The notes beneath the pieces are model-generated. The model searched no databases. It was not told where the DNA came from and saw nothing but the letters and a program-made list of their open reading frames with translations. Made by a program: the position numbers and the translations under genes. A DNA stretch of 64,000 nt, from the IMG/VR virus record IMGVR_UViG_3300020469_000011, positions 64,001 through 128,000 of that record. The stretch is one strand, 5' to 3'. Below, one piece after another: positions 1 through 61,111 of this stretch (within the stretch, counting starts at the first letter, position 1; each line of letters starts with the position of its first letter). Source of the stretch: a virus.

Positions 1-3000
1 TCGTAATATGTTTTAATTTCATCAGATAATGTTCTCAAACTTTCTATATGTGTTTCTCCTAAAACTAACGCTTGAGGTAAAGCATCTTTATCATATGCTT
101 TAACTGTTTGTAGTCTCATGGATTTTTTTATAGGTAAATTGATTACTCTATCTATACGCCTTCTTAATGAAAATAAACGATTCCTATCTATGATTTCATT
201 CATTATTTCAATATGAGGCTCAGGAGTTTGCTCACTTAAACTACTATCCAAGAAAGTTGTGTTCGGAAAATATACAGTTGTTATTGGTGTTATAATTGGA
301 TTAGTTATCTCAGCTAAATCTCTTAAACTTAAAATATTAGCCATTCCAGTTGCTGCCGCTATTGGTATTCTATCACCAACATATTCTAAGAAAGAATATT
401 TTCTATACTCATCTATAAAACGATCTGTCCAAGGTTCAATTTTATCTCCATATTGGAGAAATTCATTTCTAGATAAAACATCAAATTTTACATAAGTTGT
501 TTTTTCTTGAAATAGAACAGTAGAAGAATCTAAAAATGTTGTGTTTGGAAAATAAACTATAGTGTCAATTTGTTCAGCGATAGATACTGCCTGTTCTTGA
601 GGCCGTACATATAAAATTGCTTCTTCTACTGTTGTGGCTCTTCTTGTTAAATCTCCTAGCCATCTTCTACTAATAGCCTTTAACCAAGGTTTAAAGAATA
701 CAGGTACCCAAGGTTTTATAATTTGACCAAAGTCAAAAAATAAAAATCTGTCTAGCAAATCAACTTCTATTTTTCTAAATATTTCATTTTCTGCAACAGA
801 AAATGTATTTCCGGCAGGAGCAGGATCTATTCCACCAGAAACTAAAGTAGATAAAGGTTCTAAACCATCATTAACTGCTAATAAAGAAATATTTGATAAG
901 TATGGAATGGGTTGATCTATTTCTACGGTCGGTATTAAACTATCTACATCATCATGCATTATAAGTTTTCTACTTAAATCTGTAAGTTCGGTAGAAGATA
1001 TTTGAAACGGAGATATATAATTTAAAGGTATAGATATTTGTGTTCTTTCTAATACACTAGTTTTAAAATTATCTATAATAGCATGATTGATTACTGAAGG
1101 AACTTCTATTTTAACATCAAAAACAGTTCTGTCAAAAATTGTATTTTTTCTACCCTGATGTGCGAAACCAAAATCAAAAAAGAAATCGTCTCTATCAAAG
1201 CCTACATCTGTTCCACTAAATTGGAACGGTCTTTTTAAACCATATCCAAAAACATTTTCTTCTAGATGAGTTGTATATTGAGTAGGAGGACTTTCACCTA
1301 ATGTAGCATCAACTTCATTTATTCTTGAAATAACATAACGTACATTATGATTCTTAGGTATTAAATTATCTATATTAGTCCAATTTATAAGATTTCCATC
1401 TTCAACTATTGAACCTAATTTTTCTTTTTCACCAAACACATTTATATCAGCAGCAGAAATCAAAGCATTAATTCTATTTTTTTGTAAATCCTCTATTTTA
1501 TTTAAAACAGTAACAATTGCTTTAGGATCAAATTGATGGTCAGGAGAAAGTACATTAATATTTTCTGCAAGTAATGTTAAAGCTGTCATATCACTAAAAC
1601 TTATTTCATAACCTTCTATATCAACTTTTGGTTTATATCCACGTATTGCTGATATATAATTTTCAAAGGAGAGTTTAGATACTCTGTTTTTTCTTTCATT
1701 AGCGAATCTACCAATATCAAAATTAGCTGCTTCATTTTCTTCACTAACAAATCTAGCAACAGGAGTTTCATTTGGTGAAGAATGTGGTAGTGGAAATGTT
1801 ATAGTAAATGATTGATTATCTTCATTAATGACAGTGTGTAATGGTAGTTCATCTATAGCATAAGCCCGGGTATTTGCTGATGCTTCATTAGAAAGGATAT
1901 CTTCATTAAATGTTTTAAAATCTTTTGATAAGTCAAGGGTTACATAATGAAATTTATTAGGTTCACCAGTTTCTATATGTTTTAAAAATCCGCTATAGTC
2001 AGAAAAATAAAATTCTTGTCTAATTAAGTTTAGTGAAAATTCTGGTTTAGCTAGAACTACATAATCAAGGGTCAGGGGGGAAATTCGGGCTAGGTCCACC
2101 ACTATCGATGGCTCTGGGCCGAAGGTCTGGCTGTTTCCCTTTCGTACTAAAGAACTGAAAAAAAAAAGTTCGGAAGGAGCCACCTCCGGGTAAGGATTGT
2201 TAGTATTTGCGTTGGAATTAAAATCAAATATAATTGTGTTGGAAGGTGGCTCTATTTCCAACATATGTGACAAATCTATTTTTATACCTTCTAAGAAATC
2301 CTCTGTATGCAAAACATCTTCTTCTGTTCCAATTTTTGCAACAGTAAATTCATTATTAATAGCATATGACATATGTACAAAATCTAAATCTGGCTCACTT
2401 ATCTTTATACCACTCTTAATGAAATTCTCTATGTTATCTATTACAACACAATATAAAGTACCTGTATAGCTTACTCTATTTCTTGTAATGTTATTTTTTA
2501 TTCTAACCTGTTCATTTACAACAGATTCATTTGAATATAGTTTACTCAAATCTACTGTGTTAAAGAATGAAGAAGTTCTTGCAATATTTAATTTTTTGGA
2601 TTTTACCTTAAAAAGTAATTTATCTATACCTGAAGTAACTAATTCTTGTTCTTCCGTTACAGTAATAGATAGTCCTGCATTATCTGTATATTCGTATAGA
2701 TAACCATCATAATCAGACTCTATAATTAATTTGGGTTTTTTCCATTTAACAATTCCCTTTTCACTAACATCAGCTACATGATCATCATAAGTTAAATTTT
2801 TAAACATTACCCAACCACGATCTCTAGTAAGAATTTCACTTGTAGGTAAATATGCAGCTTCTCCATTTAAAGAGTTTCCACTAATTAAAGGTTTATAAAC
2901 TGCTGTTTCACTAAAATCAAATGAAGTATTACTGTATTTTACATCATCTCCGCTGGTTCTATTTCCTGTATAATCTGAGATATCACGTACTATAATCATA

Positions 3001-24138: not shown

Positions 24139-25132
24139 CGTCTGCAGTGTATATTTTTGTTTCCATTATGATAAGATTTATTTCATATGTTTGATGGTAA
24201 TATCCTTTTTCACCTTTTATAAATGATTCAACATCACCGCTTGACCCATAAAAAGTATTCAAATCTCTTACTACAAATGTATATGGAAAATTCATAAAGT
24301 ATCCAATTTTATCTTTTCCTTCTTCTATTTCAGAATTTCCTTTTATTCTTTCACAAATAGTTAATTTAATTTCATTTGGTATTTTAAATACTGAGCTAAA
24401 CCATTGACCCTGATTATCTTCAAAAAAAGTTTTATCAGTATATTTTTCTGTAACATCACCAAATATAGTGTTAGCAAAACCTAAATAATTAGTAGTGGCA
24501 TTAAATGCTCTTAAAGACTCTCTTCCTGCAGTATTAAGTACTGAGAAACTAGTATCCGATAGACTAGGTAATGATGATTTCTGTATTGCTTTTATTATTT
24601 TTTCTAGTTCTATAGCATCTTCTTCATTTTTAGGAGTTATCTTCCAATCTAAAGTAAATTCTCTTACCCTACTCACACCATCAAATAATAAAGTAAAATT
24701 CGGTGCTCTTGTTAGACCTAATCCTTGAGCACCTAACTTAAAGAATTTATTATCTGTCATCATGATTTCTTTTGACAAATAAGTATCAAAAGCGTTGTAT
24801 GCAGTTGTTGCTAAAGAACCAAGAGTATCCAAAGTAGAAGGTCCTGATGAACCAGAAGGACCTTCTGATGCTAAATTTTTTTTTCCACTCAAAACATTAC
24901 TTAGCGCATTTCTTACACCTTCATACTTATCTTTAACAAGTTCTCCAATAACCCCGAGTTCTCTCTGAGAATAATCTAATTGAAAATCTTCCCTTAATAA
25001 TCCTTTTGGCAATGGCAAATAAATAGTAGAAACAGATTTTTCTTTATCAACGGAAGATTCTATGATCTCTATTTTAAGAAAAAATCTCTGAAAATTCTCT
25101 ACATTTTTTGGAAAAAATATTTCTTCTGACAC
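24107..25132 (-). CDS. Second gp48/gp54-like tail-tube cap paralogue (GTG start)
   Basis: IYLPLP, PNFTLLFDGV..REFTLDWKITPKNEEDA, METKIYT; same motif layout as the neighbouring gene. Confidence 0.7.
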   Translation of the reverse strand: MSEEIFFPKNVENFQRFFLKIEIIESSVDKEKSVSTIYLPLPKGLLREDFQLDYSQRELGVIGELVKDKYEGVRNALSNVLSGKKNLASEGPSGSSGPSTLDTLGSLATTAYNAFDTYLSKEIMMTDNKFFKLGAQGLGLTRAPNFTLLFDGVSRVREFTLDWKITPKNEEDAIELEKIIKAIQKSSLPSLSDTSFSVLNTAGRESLRAFNATTNYLGFANTIFGDVTEKYTDKTFFEDNQGQWFSSVFKIPNEIKLTICERIKGNSEIEEGKDKIGYFMNFPYTFVVRDLNTFYGSSGDVESFIKGEKGYYHQTYEINLIIMETKIYTADDAENLQAHNG

Positions 25133-51111: not shown

Positions 51112-52268
51112 TGTCTTATCATAAAAAACACAACTTTCAAAATCAGCTTTCTTTATTTCTTAATATAGATGAAGAAAATGGTGGTAATGGTGGCGGCGGT
51201 AATGGTGGTGGAAACGGTAACGGTGGAAATGGTGGTCCAATGACTTCAGCTACAACGGGATTGCCAACTTCTGGAGAAGATACTTTTAGAAGAAATTCTT
51301 ATTTAGAAGGGGGAGTGTCTGGTTATTATTATGACCCAAATAAAAAAAGAAAAAAGAAACGAAAAAAATTAAAAAAATCTTTCTTAGATTATATGATAGG
51401 AGATGGATCTTCTTATGTTAAAGAAGATAAAGAATCTCCCATTGATTTTGCAATGTCTATAAATGAGGAAGATTTATCCGAACTGTTTGGTGAATCTGTA
51501 TATGAATTTGGAGAAAATACCTACACCGTAAAATACTATAGAAAAGGTGAAAATTATAGTTATGGTAAAATGTTCTTTGTAGGTAATAACAAATTTGCAA
51601 TGAGATTTAACAAAGAGCCAAAATCAAAGAACGAAATTGATAGTATATCTTTTTGGAATAAATGGTCAACAGAAATAGTAAACGAGGATTTAAATTTCAG
51701 TATAACACCAGATGCAGACGTTATAACAGATGATCTAAGTTTAGAAAAATGTTATGAGATAGCAAAGCAAATATTTAAAAATAGAAAACCGAGATTTGTA
51801 AAGATTGACAATATTAAGATAGAAAAAGGGGGAAAGCCAGCTAACAAAGAATTTCAAGAAGAGTTGGGGGAAGATGGAAAAAAATCTGTGAGTTTCACAG
51901 AATTACTTGACTTTGCCCGCCAAAAGGGGTATACTGTAAAGGAGCCAGGCGATGGTTCTCTTGATATTAATCTAGTTGTACCCATGAAGATTCCTAATAA
52001 AGAATTTATAATTCCTCATGAATCAGAATATAAAAAGACTATGAATGTAGATAAGTTTGTTGAAAATAACAAGCTTTTATTAACACCAGTCAATATACAA
52101 AACTTTGTTAAAAATGTTCAAGATGCAGAAGAATTATTAGAATTTTTTAGAAGTTTATTTAAAGACAACCTAATAAATAATTTATCTTTTGAAGCAATAG
52201 TTTTTGCTTCTAAAGTCATAAAAAGTAAACATCCTGAATGGCTTAAACTTTTAGTTCCTAGAATGTAA
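51111..52268 (+). CDS. Hypothetical protein with Gly/Asn tract and basic patch
   Basis: ORF track; NGGNGGGGNGGGNGNGGNGG. Confidence 0.7.
   Translation: MSYHKKHNFQNQLSLFLNIDEENGGNGGGGNGGGNGNGGNGGPMTSATTGLPTSGEDTFRRNSYLEGGVSGYYYDPNKKRKKKRKKLKKSFLDYMIGDGSSYVKEDKESPIDFAMSINEEDLSELFGESVYEFGENTYTVKYYRKGENYSYGKMFFVGNNKFAMRFNKEPKSKNEIDSISFWNKWSTEIVNEDLNFSITPDADVITDDLSLEKCYEIAKQIFKNRKPRFVKIDNIKIEKGGKPANKEFQEELGEDGKKSVSFTELLDFARQKGYTVKEPGDGSLDINLVVPMKIPNKEFIIPHESEYKKTMNVDKFVENNKLLLTPVNIQNFVKNVQDAEELLEFFRSLFKDNLINNLSFEAIVFASKVIKSKHPEWLKLLVPRM
51907..51935 (+). promoter_or_regulatory. Intragenic sigma70-type promoter upstream of the Nudix-to-primase genes
   Basis: TTGACT-N17-TATACT. Confidence 0.55.
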
Positions 52269-58184: not shown

Positions 58185-59007
58185 GTATAATATTACATTT
58201 TTCTAACGCACTAATCATTCTTGTCATTCCAATTCCCCCACCAACTCTAGGAAAAAAATCAAAAGACAAGAATTTTTCTAATTCAGCTTCTACTCTATCT
58301 TTTCCAAATAAGTTATAAAGCAATTGACTATACTCACCATTTGTTATAGTATGAAAAGTATCACGCATTTGATCTACATTTGTTGACCTCTCTGCTGAAC
58401 CAATTGTCTCCATTCCTCCAAGAATAACGTCAATCTTTTTACTATGCACTCCATCTTCATGTCTACTCATATTCCAAAATGGACTTGTAAATTCTGGAAA
58501 ATCTGTAATCATACAAGTACCAAAATTGTTAAACATTGACTCTTCATGACTTGCATCAAGCTCACTATCAACAGCAAAATGTTCCTGCCATTCTACATAT
58601 GTTCTTTCAGTTATATCATCAAATCCTAGATAATTACAAAGTTGATATTCCATCTCACTTAAATTTTCAATTGTTCCTGGAAACTCAAATTCAAACATAG
58701 GGAAAATTATATCATGTCTTCCTGGTATTGCATTTGGTTCTTGTCTATAACTAGTGCTGATACAAAAAAACCCTTCAGAAGAAGGGCTTTTTAATAATTC
58801 ATGTTCTAACCACATCTGACCTGTTTGAGGTAAAGGCCATACCTCTCCTGCGTAATTATAAGTAGCAACATTGAACGGGTCTTCACATGCTGCTAGAATA
58901 CTCAAACGATTTTGAGTGTGAACTTCTGCGAAACCTCTATCTAAAAAAAAAGATCGTAAAGAATTTACGGTGCTTGTATATTTGCGAGGATCAATTAGTT
59001 GGGTCAT
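58174..59007 (-). CDS. Class IIb aaRS paralogue (AsnRS-like catalytic core without anticodon-binding domain; asparagine-synthetase-like)
   Basis: RSFFLDRGFAEV (motif 1), YRQEP..RH..F..FEFE (motif 2), ETIGSAER, GGGIGMTR (motif 3); AGGAG SD points to ATG 59007. Confidence 0.8.
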   Translation of the reverse strand: MTQLIDPRKYTSTVNSLRSFFLDRGFAEVHTQNRLSILAACEDPFNVATYNYAGEVWPLPQTGQMWLEHELLKSPSSEGFFCISTSYRQEPNAIPGRHDIIFPMFEFEFPGTIENLSEMEYQLCNYLGFDDITERTYVEWQEHFAVDSELDASHEESMFNNFGTCMITDFPEFTSPFWNMSRHEDGVHSKKIDVILGGMETIGSAERSTNVDQMRDTFHTITNGEYSQLLYNLFGKDRVEAELEKFLSFDFFPRVGGGIGMTRMISALEKCNIILDA

Positions 59008-60112: not shown

Positions 60113-61111
60113 CTACTCCTTTTTAATTTTATCAATATATTTTTTAACTATATTTGGTTTCATTTGATGTTCTTTCTCATCAATTATCTGAACATTAAGA
60201 CCTTTAACAATTTCTCTGAATTCAGAATTCGTTACCTTTGCGTTTTCTAATGCTTCTTCAATATAATAAACTTGTAATATTTTAAAGTTAGATAAAACTA
60301 TTTCATCATAGTCTAAATATTTGGAACCTGATGTCCATTTTTTACTCTGCATATTTGGCCAGCGCATAATAAGTTCATTAAAAACTTTGCGATATTCTTT
60401 TTTACTTTTAATAATCCTTTCAGTTCCAGCAACATATTGTCTTATATATTTCTGTTTAACATCGCCTGAAATATCATAAGGAGTATAATCATTTTCTTTA
60501 TCTCCATATTCATCACGAAGTTTTTTGAGTAAATTTTGTTTAAATATAACTAGTTTTTGAAGTAAAAGTTTGTATTGATAAAATTTCATTTCTTTTTCGG
60601 CAGATGTCATTTTATTTTTTTTTGATTTCCCATCTAAAAAGAATTCGATATATGATGATGACATAATTGAACTATCACTATCTCCACTTATATCAATAAC
60701 TCTCACTCCTTTTTTATCTGGCTTGCTCATGATGTCGCCAGCTTGACCCATTAGTGCAGTTCCTTCTAAAATAGTAATAACACCACCCCCATCATCCCAA
60801 ATTCCATACAACATTGTTCCAATATTATCAACAGTAAAAGCTGAAATTTGTTTTGTTCTTTTATTTTGAAGTTTTTTAAGTTTATCTAAACCTTTTACTC
60901 CAGAGGAATGTGCAGCTATTAAACGCACTGGTGTTGAAACTCTTTCTATAAATTTTTGATCAAGAATAAGATGAAAACTTTTATCTTTTTCATCTTGAAA
61001 TATATATTCTTTGTCATCAGCCAGCAATCCATCTGCTTCCATGAATATATGGTCAAATAAAGACCGCTGCCATTGAACCTCTTCGTTTACTACTTCTTTA
61101 AATGACTTCAT
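60113..61111 (-). CDS. Putative internal head protein (capsid leader), possible ADP-ribosyltransferase fold
   Basis: MKSFKEVVNE leader; AAHS / ISAFT / YDEIVL spaced like an H-S-E core (weak evidence). Confidence 0.55.
   Translation of the reverse strand: MKSFKEVVNEEVQWQRSLFDHIFMEADGLLADDKEYIFQDEKDKSFHLILDQKFIERVSTPVRLIAAHSSGVKGLDKLKKLQNKRTKQISAFTVDNIGTMLYGIWDDGGGVITILEGTALMGQAGDIMSKPDKKGVRVIDISGDSDSSIMSSSYIEFFLDGKSKKNKMTSAEKEMKFYQYKLLLQKLVIFKQNLLKKLRDEYGDKENDYTPYDISGDVKQKYIRQYVAGTERIIKSKKEYRKVFNELIMRWPNMQSKKWTSGSKYLDYDEIVLSNFKILQVYYIEEALENAKVTNSEFREIVKGLNVQIIDEKEHQMKPNIVKKYIDKIKKE

Follow-up and report, generated by a model that had tools for sequence, protein, structure and literature searches.

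The giant gp7 gene and its GC-rich island

The DNA analysed here, called the window throughout, is a stretch of 64,000 nucleotides comprising bases 64001-128000 of a 146.5-kb IMG/VR viral contig (IMGVR_UViG_3300020469_000011), which has 29.6% guanine plus cytosine (GC) and an estimated completeness of 68%. At its start, on the minus strand, lies most of a very large gene resembling the baseplate wedge gene gp7, and inside this gene stands a sharply bounded GC-rich island that includes a run of ten T's on the coding strand (T10). This island, the run and the reading frame hidden beneath them are the subject of the present analysis.

In the whole contig the complete gp7-like gene encodes 2688 amino acids. 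Its N-terminus matches the Pfam family PF23786 (Baseplate_wedge; 31.1 bits against a cut-off of 27) and PHROG 17744 (E = 2.7e-29), and the gene order in relatives is gp25-gp6-gp7-gp8. Because the N-terminus matches the wedge family and the relatives' gene sits between gp25/gp6 and gp8, both features expected of such a protein, the N-terminal domain and the place between gp6 and gp8, are present, the synteny being read in relatives; on these comparative grounds the gene is assigned to an uncultured marine T4-like phage and codes for a giant wedge protein of the gp7 type. Among cultured phages, the closest are the Pelagibacter phages Mosig and HTVC008M and the Methylophilales phage Melnitz, which match over the first ~340 residues only, at ~25% identity. 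A phmmer search of the full protein against PDB sequences, the solved T4 gp7 included, gave no match, and the end of the part equivalent to T4 gp7 is therefore not placed. Pfam and PHROGs searches with the full-length relatives found nothing in the C-terminal 1500 residues. Between lineages, the N-terminal module preceding the T10 run is 45-61% identical and the C-terminal module (1460-1700 residues) 25-48%. In Mosig (L022, MT647606.1, 8971-15710) the gp7 homologue has 874 residues, and a separate tail-fibre gene, a small open reading frame (ORF) and a tail assembly chaperone gene stand between gp7 and gp8; in the clade of the window gp8 directly follows the giant gp7.

Structure prediction with AlphaFold2 for residues 850-1500, based on a seven-row alignment, gave a mean predicted local distance difference test score (pLDDT) of 34. 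The sole confident part is a beta-rich domain at residues ~940-1080 (window ~2436-2858; pLDDT 70-86), which ends ~90 residues before the putative slip site.

The island proper (2071-2190) contains 64 G+C in 120 nt, as the preliminary description of this DNA had stated and our recount reproduced, and the slightly longer segment 2068-2192 contains 66 in 125 (52.8%). The whole window has a GC content of 29.8% with a standard deviation of 5.3% between 100-nt windows; the island peaks at 0.53 on this scale, more than four standard deviations above the window mean, and is among the top two 100-nt peaks of the window. The remaining high peaks are tRNA genes or Gly-rich or conserved coding sequence. 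The zero frame is open across the island, and on retranslation both this statement and the peptide quoted earlier were correct. GC at codon positions 1/2/3 is 0.57/0.44/0.52 in the island versus 0.40/0.32/0.14 in the whole gene; the excess falls largely on synonymous sites, and its earlier attribution to G/C-ending codons agrees with the third-position values (52% in the island, 14% in the gene). Repeat and own-genome searches located the island once only in its own genome, and it is therefore neither a repeat nor a mobile mini-element. A second GC peak (0.53) at window 51157-51297 consists of GGT/GGC/AAC codons of a Gly/Asn-rich low-complexity stretch in a plus-strand ORF and looks like ordinary compositional bias due to glycine codons.

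Occurrence of the cassette in relatives

The island with its run, hereafter the cassette, was assessed by sequence comparison throughout, in 21 assemblies from different projects that represent six lineages with proteins 26-61% identical. The zero-frame peptide of the island aligns gap-free to relatives of ~50% identity, whose islands share long identical stretches and whose flanks are collinear. Relatives writing the same peptide with AT-rich codons had been proposed as a check on the island; in the event, the relatives' DNA is also GC-rich at this place, synonymous sites included, in genes of 29% GC.

Further giant gp7 genes were brought in by a search with the N-terminal 1160 residues, and lineages L017, L018 and L019 and the fragment L008 carry the cassette too. 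Motifs derived from the cassette and searched in IMG/VR found ten true copies of gp7 and a single chance match. The degenerate DNA pattern for EPSIVVDLA retrieved L007 and one chance match (L006) from IMG/VR, and the PEVAP..FFF pattern retrieved L007 only; a shortened form of the latter yielded three further copies of the L003 lineage and five chance matches in JGI metagenomes. HMMER against 1.8 billion representatives added one true fragment (P0005), the three other new matches being repeat proteins. The phage database searched by DNA gave no match to the island, and neither the search for related loci with a single protein nor the search for fragment-sized proteins returned anything.

An invariant T10 run and an open -1 frame

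The T10 run is the sole A/T run of at least 10 nt in the 146.5-kb contig, where 5.6 are expected, and there are four A/T runs of at least 9 nt versus 15.9 expected. This depletion of long A/T runs is consistent with selection against slippage-prone tracts. Exactly ten T's are found at the homologous codon in 21 of 21 assemblies of the six lineages, and the codons around them vary, with CTT, GTT or ATT before and TTC, TTA or TTG after (zero frame LFFF, VFFF, IFFF, IFFL). Within each 8-9 kb gene T10 is the only run of eight or more. It thus has the properties of a slippage site, a homopolymeric A/T run of about nine or more inside a coding sequence that is kept in diverged relatives against a run-avoiding background. 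The slippery heptamer U_UUU_UUU, of the X_XXY_YYZ type, is in phase within xUU UUU UUU UUC/A/G in all lineages. No cluster member examined has the gene split at T10, and because dozens of them encode full-length ORFs, T10 is the stable genomic state.

The three other runs of nine bases in the contig, at window 24876-24884 (A9), 58943-58951 (T9) and 60615-60623 (A9), given on the sense strand, all lie in minus-strand ORFs. At each of them one alternative frame stops within 1-3 codons; at 24876-24884 the -1 frame is open for ~29 further codons.

In each of the six lineages, 28-30 codons of open -1 frame follow T10, and the stop falls at the end of the island. The +1 frame stops 0-3 codons past the run in five of the six lineages and after 17 codons in L008; both non-zero frames would give defined products, as expected at a slippage site. 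In every full-length gene examined, no -1 open stretch is longer than the one at T10 (44-53 codons), the median being 4-5 codons. Among 716 ungapped 28-codon windows of a codon alignment of five genes, only those of the island are free of -1 stops in all five full-length genes, and the median number of -1 stops per window set is 20. The features of the locus are listed in Table 1.

Table 1. Positions of the cassette and its parts in the window
Feature	Position	Strand	Remarks
Giant gp7-like baseplate wedge gene, first 1891 codons	1..5675	-	ATG at 5675-5673; gene runs off the start of the window
Putative T10 slip site (A10 on the plus strand)	2158..2167	-	Zero frame CTT TTT TTT TTC
Shine-Dalgarno-like GGAGGTG in codons CCG GAG GTG	2181..2187	-	Perfect; ends 13 nt before the T run
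Hairpin, six pairs and one bulge	2171..2188	-	3' arm ends 3 nt before the T run; from terminator-pattern scan
Tail ORF in the -1 frame, 30 codons and TGA (2067-2065)	2065..2157	-	Would be entered only via a shift at the T run
Entire -1 open stretch, stop to stop, 44 codons	2065..2199	-	Matches the GC island, starting just upstream of it
TAG in the +1 frame, three codons past the run	2147..2149	-	Would end the product of mRNA minus one U

From the upstream stop to the run, the -1 frame contains no conserved ATG, GTG or TTG. A separate translation start for the -1 ORF was rejected for this reason, and the frame would thus be reachable only by a shift at the run. The preliminary description had found no ATG-initiated ORF in the plus frame, a statement that stands as far as it goes; because only ATG-initiated plus-strand ORFs had been checked, it overlooked the start-less -1-frame ORF on the sense strand, which extends from the T run to the end of the island.

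Selection on the -1 peptide

The six -1 tails align gap-free over 27 codons around the core L-R-P-x-A-I-D-S-G. Of the six invariant columns, five draw on several synonymous codons, namely Leu with four, Pro with three, Gly with three, a second Pro with three and Ser with AGT versus TCA/TCT. Such a switch between the Ser codon families is hard to explain other than by selection on the amino acid. Over the tail, identity at codon positions 1/2/3 is 0.48/0.63/0.43 in frame -1 and 0.62/0.43/0.49 in frame 0 on the same bases, compared with 0.565/0.659/0.472 for frame 0 gene-wide; this comparison shows a coding-like pattern in frame -1 and an abnormal one in frame 0 over the same bases. The mean pairwise peptide identity over the tail is 41.5% in frame -1 versus 32.3% in frame 0, and the island windows are the only ones in which -1 conservation lies above that of frame 0 (+0.13 versus a mean of -0.21, standard deviation 0.09). 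Alignment of the six lineages demonstrates in this way that the -1 peptide is under purifying selection, just as it demonstrates the anatomy of the cassette and its conservation. The second frame accordingly has both marks of an overlapping gene, being open in all relatives and selected at the protein level.

Upstream element and RNA structure

Upstream of the run, the Shine-Dalgarno (SD)-like GGAGGTG is a perfect complement of the 3' end of 16S rRNA. It is identical in five of the six lineages, always ending 13 nt before the run, so that an SD-like element of the kind known from dnaX-type cassettes is present in all but L017. For dnaX-type sites, Larsen and colleagues reportedly placed this element in 1994 at roughly 10-14 nt 5' of the heptamer. 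The codons CCG, GAG and GTG that spell it are all rare, with a joint frequency of 4e-4 to 2e-3 when each gene's own codon usage is applied. Ribosome binding sites of the SD type are in use in this phage, as AGGA occurs in 34% of the regions upstream of its gene starts versus 6% in the background. L003 and L008 have the same 21 nt directly ahead of T10; the identity of their proteins in this region is 37%.

The same nucleotides can form a hairpin, and a scan for terminator patterns flagged it together with the T10 run, in line with the terminator-like appearance on the mRNA strand noted earlier. In five of the six lineages, the 24 nt ahead of the run fold best into a hairpin whose end is 2-3 nt short of the run; L019 is different. 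An intrinsic terminator is matched in pattern alone: the stem is weak and set 3 nt away from the run, and the place is 3.5 kb into an 8-kb gene.

A scan of 1900-2350 with Rfam (E <= 10) gave only a meaningless match to a long non-coding RNA, and no conserved structure was found on the sense or antisense strand across the relatives. Single-sequence folds compared with shuffles had z = 0.0 on the sense strand and z = -2.1 on the antisense strand. The GGGAAA/UUUCCC stem of the preliminary description is part of the sense-strand minimum free energy (MFE) fold, but in view of this z of 0.0 and of its absence from the relatives it lost its significance. A 3' stem-loop or pseudoknot of the dnaX type was not found either, as the RNAalifold consensus contains no local 3' helix and received no covariation credit.

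RNAalifold also indicated that GGUGGC (window 2181-2186, minus strand) can pair with GCCAUC (~2106-2111), ~47 nt after the run, in five of the six lineages. This pairing has one compensatory U-A/A-U pair and a consensus energy of only -6.8 kcal/mol. It may be accidental because both arms are also under coding constraint, and the helix would be excluded for as long as the run is occupied by a polymerase or ribosome.

A proposed programmed recoding cassette and its alternatives

We propose that the island is a programmed recoding cassette in the gp7 gene, which probably gives rise to a short gp7 of ~1203 residues beside the full-length protein. Most of the mRNA and ribosomes would read through and give the 2688-residue protein, while a fraction would shift into the -1 frame at T10, read 30 codons and stop, so that the short gp7 would consist of 1173 residues and the conserved 30-residue tail. 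The main route would be slippage of the host RNA polymerase on the ten-base run, by which one U is added in some transcripts; runs of nine A or T are, according to the review by Atkins et al. (2016, PMC5009743), sites of efficient slippage by bacterial RNA polymerase in vivo. Transcripts lacking one U would stop within three codons and give a tail-less truncation. The upstream hairpin may aid the slippage of the polymerase, and a ribosomal -1 shift on U_UUU_UUU, aided by the SD-like GGAGGTG, may contribute or even be the main route. We lean only slightly towards the polymerase: ribosomes would need no more than the heptamer, but the run is exactly ten T's long in every lineage, and the conservation of the SD-like element makes the ribosomal route nearly as likely. 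The occurrence of the shift, its route and rate, and the roles of the two isoforms are what we infer from the conserved anatomy. The high GC of the island would follow because the second frame must avoid TAA, TAG and TGA in a 29%-GC genome, because the tail is rich in Pro, Gly, Arg, Ala and Ser, and because the SD-like/hairpin element, itself GC-rich, is kept. Among the explanations first listed for the island, a second layer of information in synonymous sites and a frameshift at U10 leading to a shorter gp7 are the ones that gained comparative evidence.

Several observations weigh against such a cassette. No conserved stem-loop was found downstream of the run, where the MFE folds vary from lineage to lineage. 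With energies of -4 to -8 kcal/mol the upstream hairpin is weak, and for the most part it does not outperform shuffles, being more stable than these only in L017 (0/500) and marginally in the window (0.07), and L017 is the lineage without GGAGG. As for the ribosome, U_UUU_UUU is described as a poor -1 site in E. coli in the part of PMC5009743 that deals with it. The tail has no detectable relative, since tblastn of the 44-residue -1 ORF against 50,697 phage records gave nothing, and the agreement between the lineages is partly shared ancestry because all six belong to one clade. Finally, resampling of synonymous codons gave P values for an open -1 frame of 0.01-0.02 in two lineages and 0.18-0.63 in the other four. 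Openness of the -1 frame is by itself weak evidence for this reason, in part because the zero-frame peptide is itself shaped by the overlap, and the case is therefore carried by the conservation of the peptide and the invariant T10.

Nested within the recoding cassette is a version in which the same product arises by a purely ribosomal, dnaX-like -1 frameshift on U_UUU_UUU (or U_UUU_UUC/A/G) with pairing of GGAGGTG to 16S rRNA, which we regard as a serious possibility although not the leading one. It is suggested by a slippery heptamer that is in frame in all lineages, by a 7-nt SD-like element that ends 13 nt before the run, consists of rare codons and is identical in five of the six lineages, and by the SD-type ribosome binding sites of the phage; moreover, passages of PMC5009743 name a 5' SD as a major stimulator of dnaX and of ~56% of the -1 frameshifts in insertion sequence (IS) elements. 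The exact number of ten T's is superfluous for a ribosome to which the heptamer suffices, however, and the same source, where it compares heptamers, has those made of U only as far less shift-prone than A_AAA_AAG in E. coli. The missing 3' stem-loop and the presence of T10 and tail in L017, which has no GGAGG, also speak against an exclusively ribosomal shift.

T10 could also be a contingency locus at the DNA level, at which changes of the run length during replication produce heritable T11 or T9 variants that make only the short gp7, the tail then serving the variants and not a ratio fixed in every infection. Ten-base homopolymers are prone to replication slippage, and both non-zero frames would give defined truncated products; nevertheless T9, T11 or a split gene was seen in none of the 21 assemblies and in no cluster member examined, where consensus assemblies would miss minority variants, and we consider such a locus very improbable. 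The island might instead act as an RNA or DNA signal, for instance an intrinsic terminator or attenuator of partial effect, a rare-codon pause site or a long-range helix around the run, with the open -1 frame as a by-product of high GC. A hairpin followed by a U run fits the terminator pattern, the GC-ending codons are rare in the gene (14% GC at third positions), the GGUGGC/GCCAUC pairing recurs in five of the six lineages with its one compensatory pair, and high GC by itself lowers the frequency of stop codons. Such a signal fails to predict the codon periodicity of the -1 frame, the switching of Ser between AGT and TCN and the shared position of the stop in six lineages, and mRNA ended by a terminator midway through this essential 8-kb gene would lack a stop codon. 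With a sense-strand z of 0.0, a consensus of -6.8 kcal/mol without covariation credit and no Rfam match, it is very improbable, and the attenuator, antisense RNA, origin or packaging element of the preliminary description drew no support from a conserved RNA fold or an Rfam family. Recombination with a donor richer in GC, insertion of a mobile element in frame or chimeric assembly would account for the abrupt jump in composition and for a sequence unique within the genome. These possibilities, and with them the recombined, recoded or misassembled segment considered earlier, are practically negligible: the T10 cassette is found with collinear flanks in 21 independent assemblies of different projects and six lineages, the zero-frame peptide aligns without insertion in all relatives, and the island has diverged along with the host genes (73% mean column identity over 161 columns).

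Relation to known recoding systems

The mechanism proposed for the cassette belongs to known recoding, with dnaX of Thermus thermophilus as the closest case and potyvirus P3N-PIPO also near, and it has the SD feature in common with dnaX of E. coli. In T. thermophilus dnaX, as described in passages of PMC5009743, slippage leads to a short and a long subunit, and stops lie near the run in both other frames. The likeness to this tau/gamma system, as far as that account extends, consists of an A/T run of 9-10 bases partway in a long ORF and of a short and a long protein with a common N-terminus. In the gp7 gene, by contrast, one of the non-zero frames encodes a conserved tail of 28-30 residues, the product is a virion baseplate protein and slippage is predicted from sequence. 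In E. coli dnaX a 5' SD stimulates the -1 ribosomal frameshift, according to the part of PMC5009743 concerned with it. Common to both loci are the in-frame heptamer, an SD-like element at a comparable distance and a shorter product, predicted in the case of gp7, ending ~40-45% into the gene; unlike E. coli dnaX, the cassette has an all-U slippery sequence that is weak in E. coli, no conserved 3' stem-loop was found in it, and its run has 10 nt instead of 7.

Potyvirus P3N-PIPO, in the portions of PMC5027478 and PMC5009743 that treat it, resembles the cassette in that a start-less ORF lies inside a very long ORF and the second frame is conserved. There, polymerase slippage at a homopolymer run reaches the hidden ORF, as we propose for gp7 as well, but this occurs in an RNA virus with its own polymerase, at GA6 and with an ORF of ~60-115 codons, whereas here a DNA phage would use the host polymerase, T10 and 30 codons. 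Large injection and assembly machines offer another parallel. Sections of PMC5009743 report truncated products by transcriptional slippage for Shigella spa33 and mxiA and an extended product for mxiE, so that slippage on A/T runs sets the ratios of protein variants, much as it might in the baseplate; these type III secretion genes are cellular, and in the same sections a conserved overlapping tail is not mentioned for them. Roseiflexus IS630, in the passage of PMC5009743 devoted to it, has a nascent-RNA hairpin just 5' of the slip motif that stimulates slippage, a terminator-like layout recurring in the gp7 gene. Its strong 6-bp GC stem abuts T5C5, which in that description does not slip unaided, while in the cassette a weak hairpin is separated from the run by 3 nt, and T10 would be expected to slip by itself. 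The lambda G/GT tail chaperone and T7 gene 10A/10B, in the brief treatment of PMC5009743, are phage morphogenesis genes that give two proteins with a common N-terminus in a set ratio, as gp7 might. Their shifted product is longer and minor, their sites are ribosomal and the genes are others than gp7.

Giant genes fused to gp7 have been described before in the marine T4-like cyanomyoviruses P-SSM2 and P-SSM4, where very large genes with the N-terminus of the wedge initiator gp7 were proposed to encode baseplate-anchored fibres (Sullivan et al. 2005, PMC1079782); recoding was not reported there. Full-text literature searches found no paper on recoding in gp7 or in any baseplate wedge gene. If it is confirmed, the cassette would give baseplate wedge genes their first described case of recoding, and it would place an SD-like element and a terminator-like hairpin together before one slip site.

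The short form would resemble a stand-alone gp7, and the long form a gp7 with a fused distal extension. We hypothesize, with the chances evenly balanced, that this clade builds its baseplates from two gp7 isoforms, a wedge of canonical size with the tail and a giant one with a variable and probably fibre-like extension of ~1500 residues, in a ratio set by slippage of the polymerase, the ribosome or both. Should both isoforms exist, the number of wedges out of six that bear the large variable extension would be set by their ratio, with consequences for host recognition and baseplate assembly in this abundant group of ocean phages, none of which is in culture. Since the giant ORF is all that gene callers annotate here, the second virion protein would at present be invisible in all these genomes. 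As a heuristic, a hidden second frame in a very AT-rich genome can be marked by a sharp GC island that stays in frame beside a homopolymer run. For the study of recoding, the locus could provide a natural cassette in which polymerase slippage and an SD-stimulated ribosomal shift are separable by simple mutations.

A different run in distant relatives

The gp7 genes of two distant relatives (P0012 and P0013) contain neither the T10 cassette nor the GC island. They share an A10 run at L020:5198-5207 and L021:5105-5114, near codon 1535-1566, which is read as xxA AAA AAA AAA and encodes the peptide D-[LP]-K-K-K-F-F-D-S. This A10 is the longest A/T run of each gene, and both other frames stop within 2-6 codons. 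P0014 and P0019 have the KKKFFD motif as well. The run could be a second, dnaX-like slip site or just reflect lysine conservation where the genome is AT-rich.

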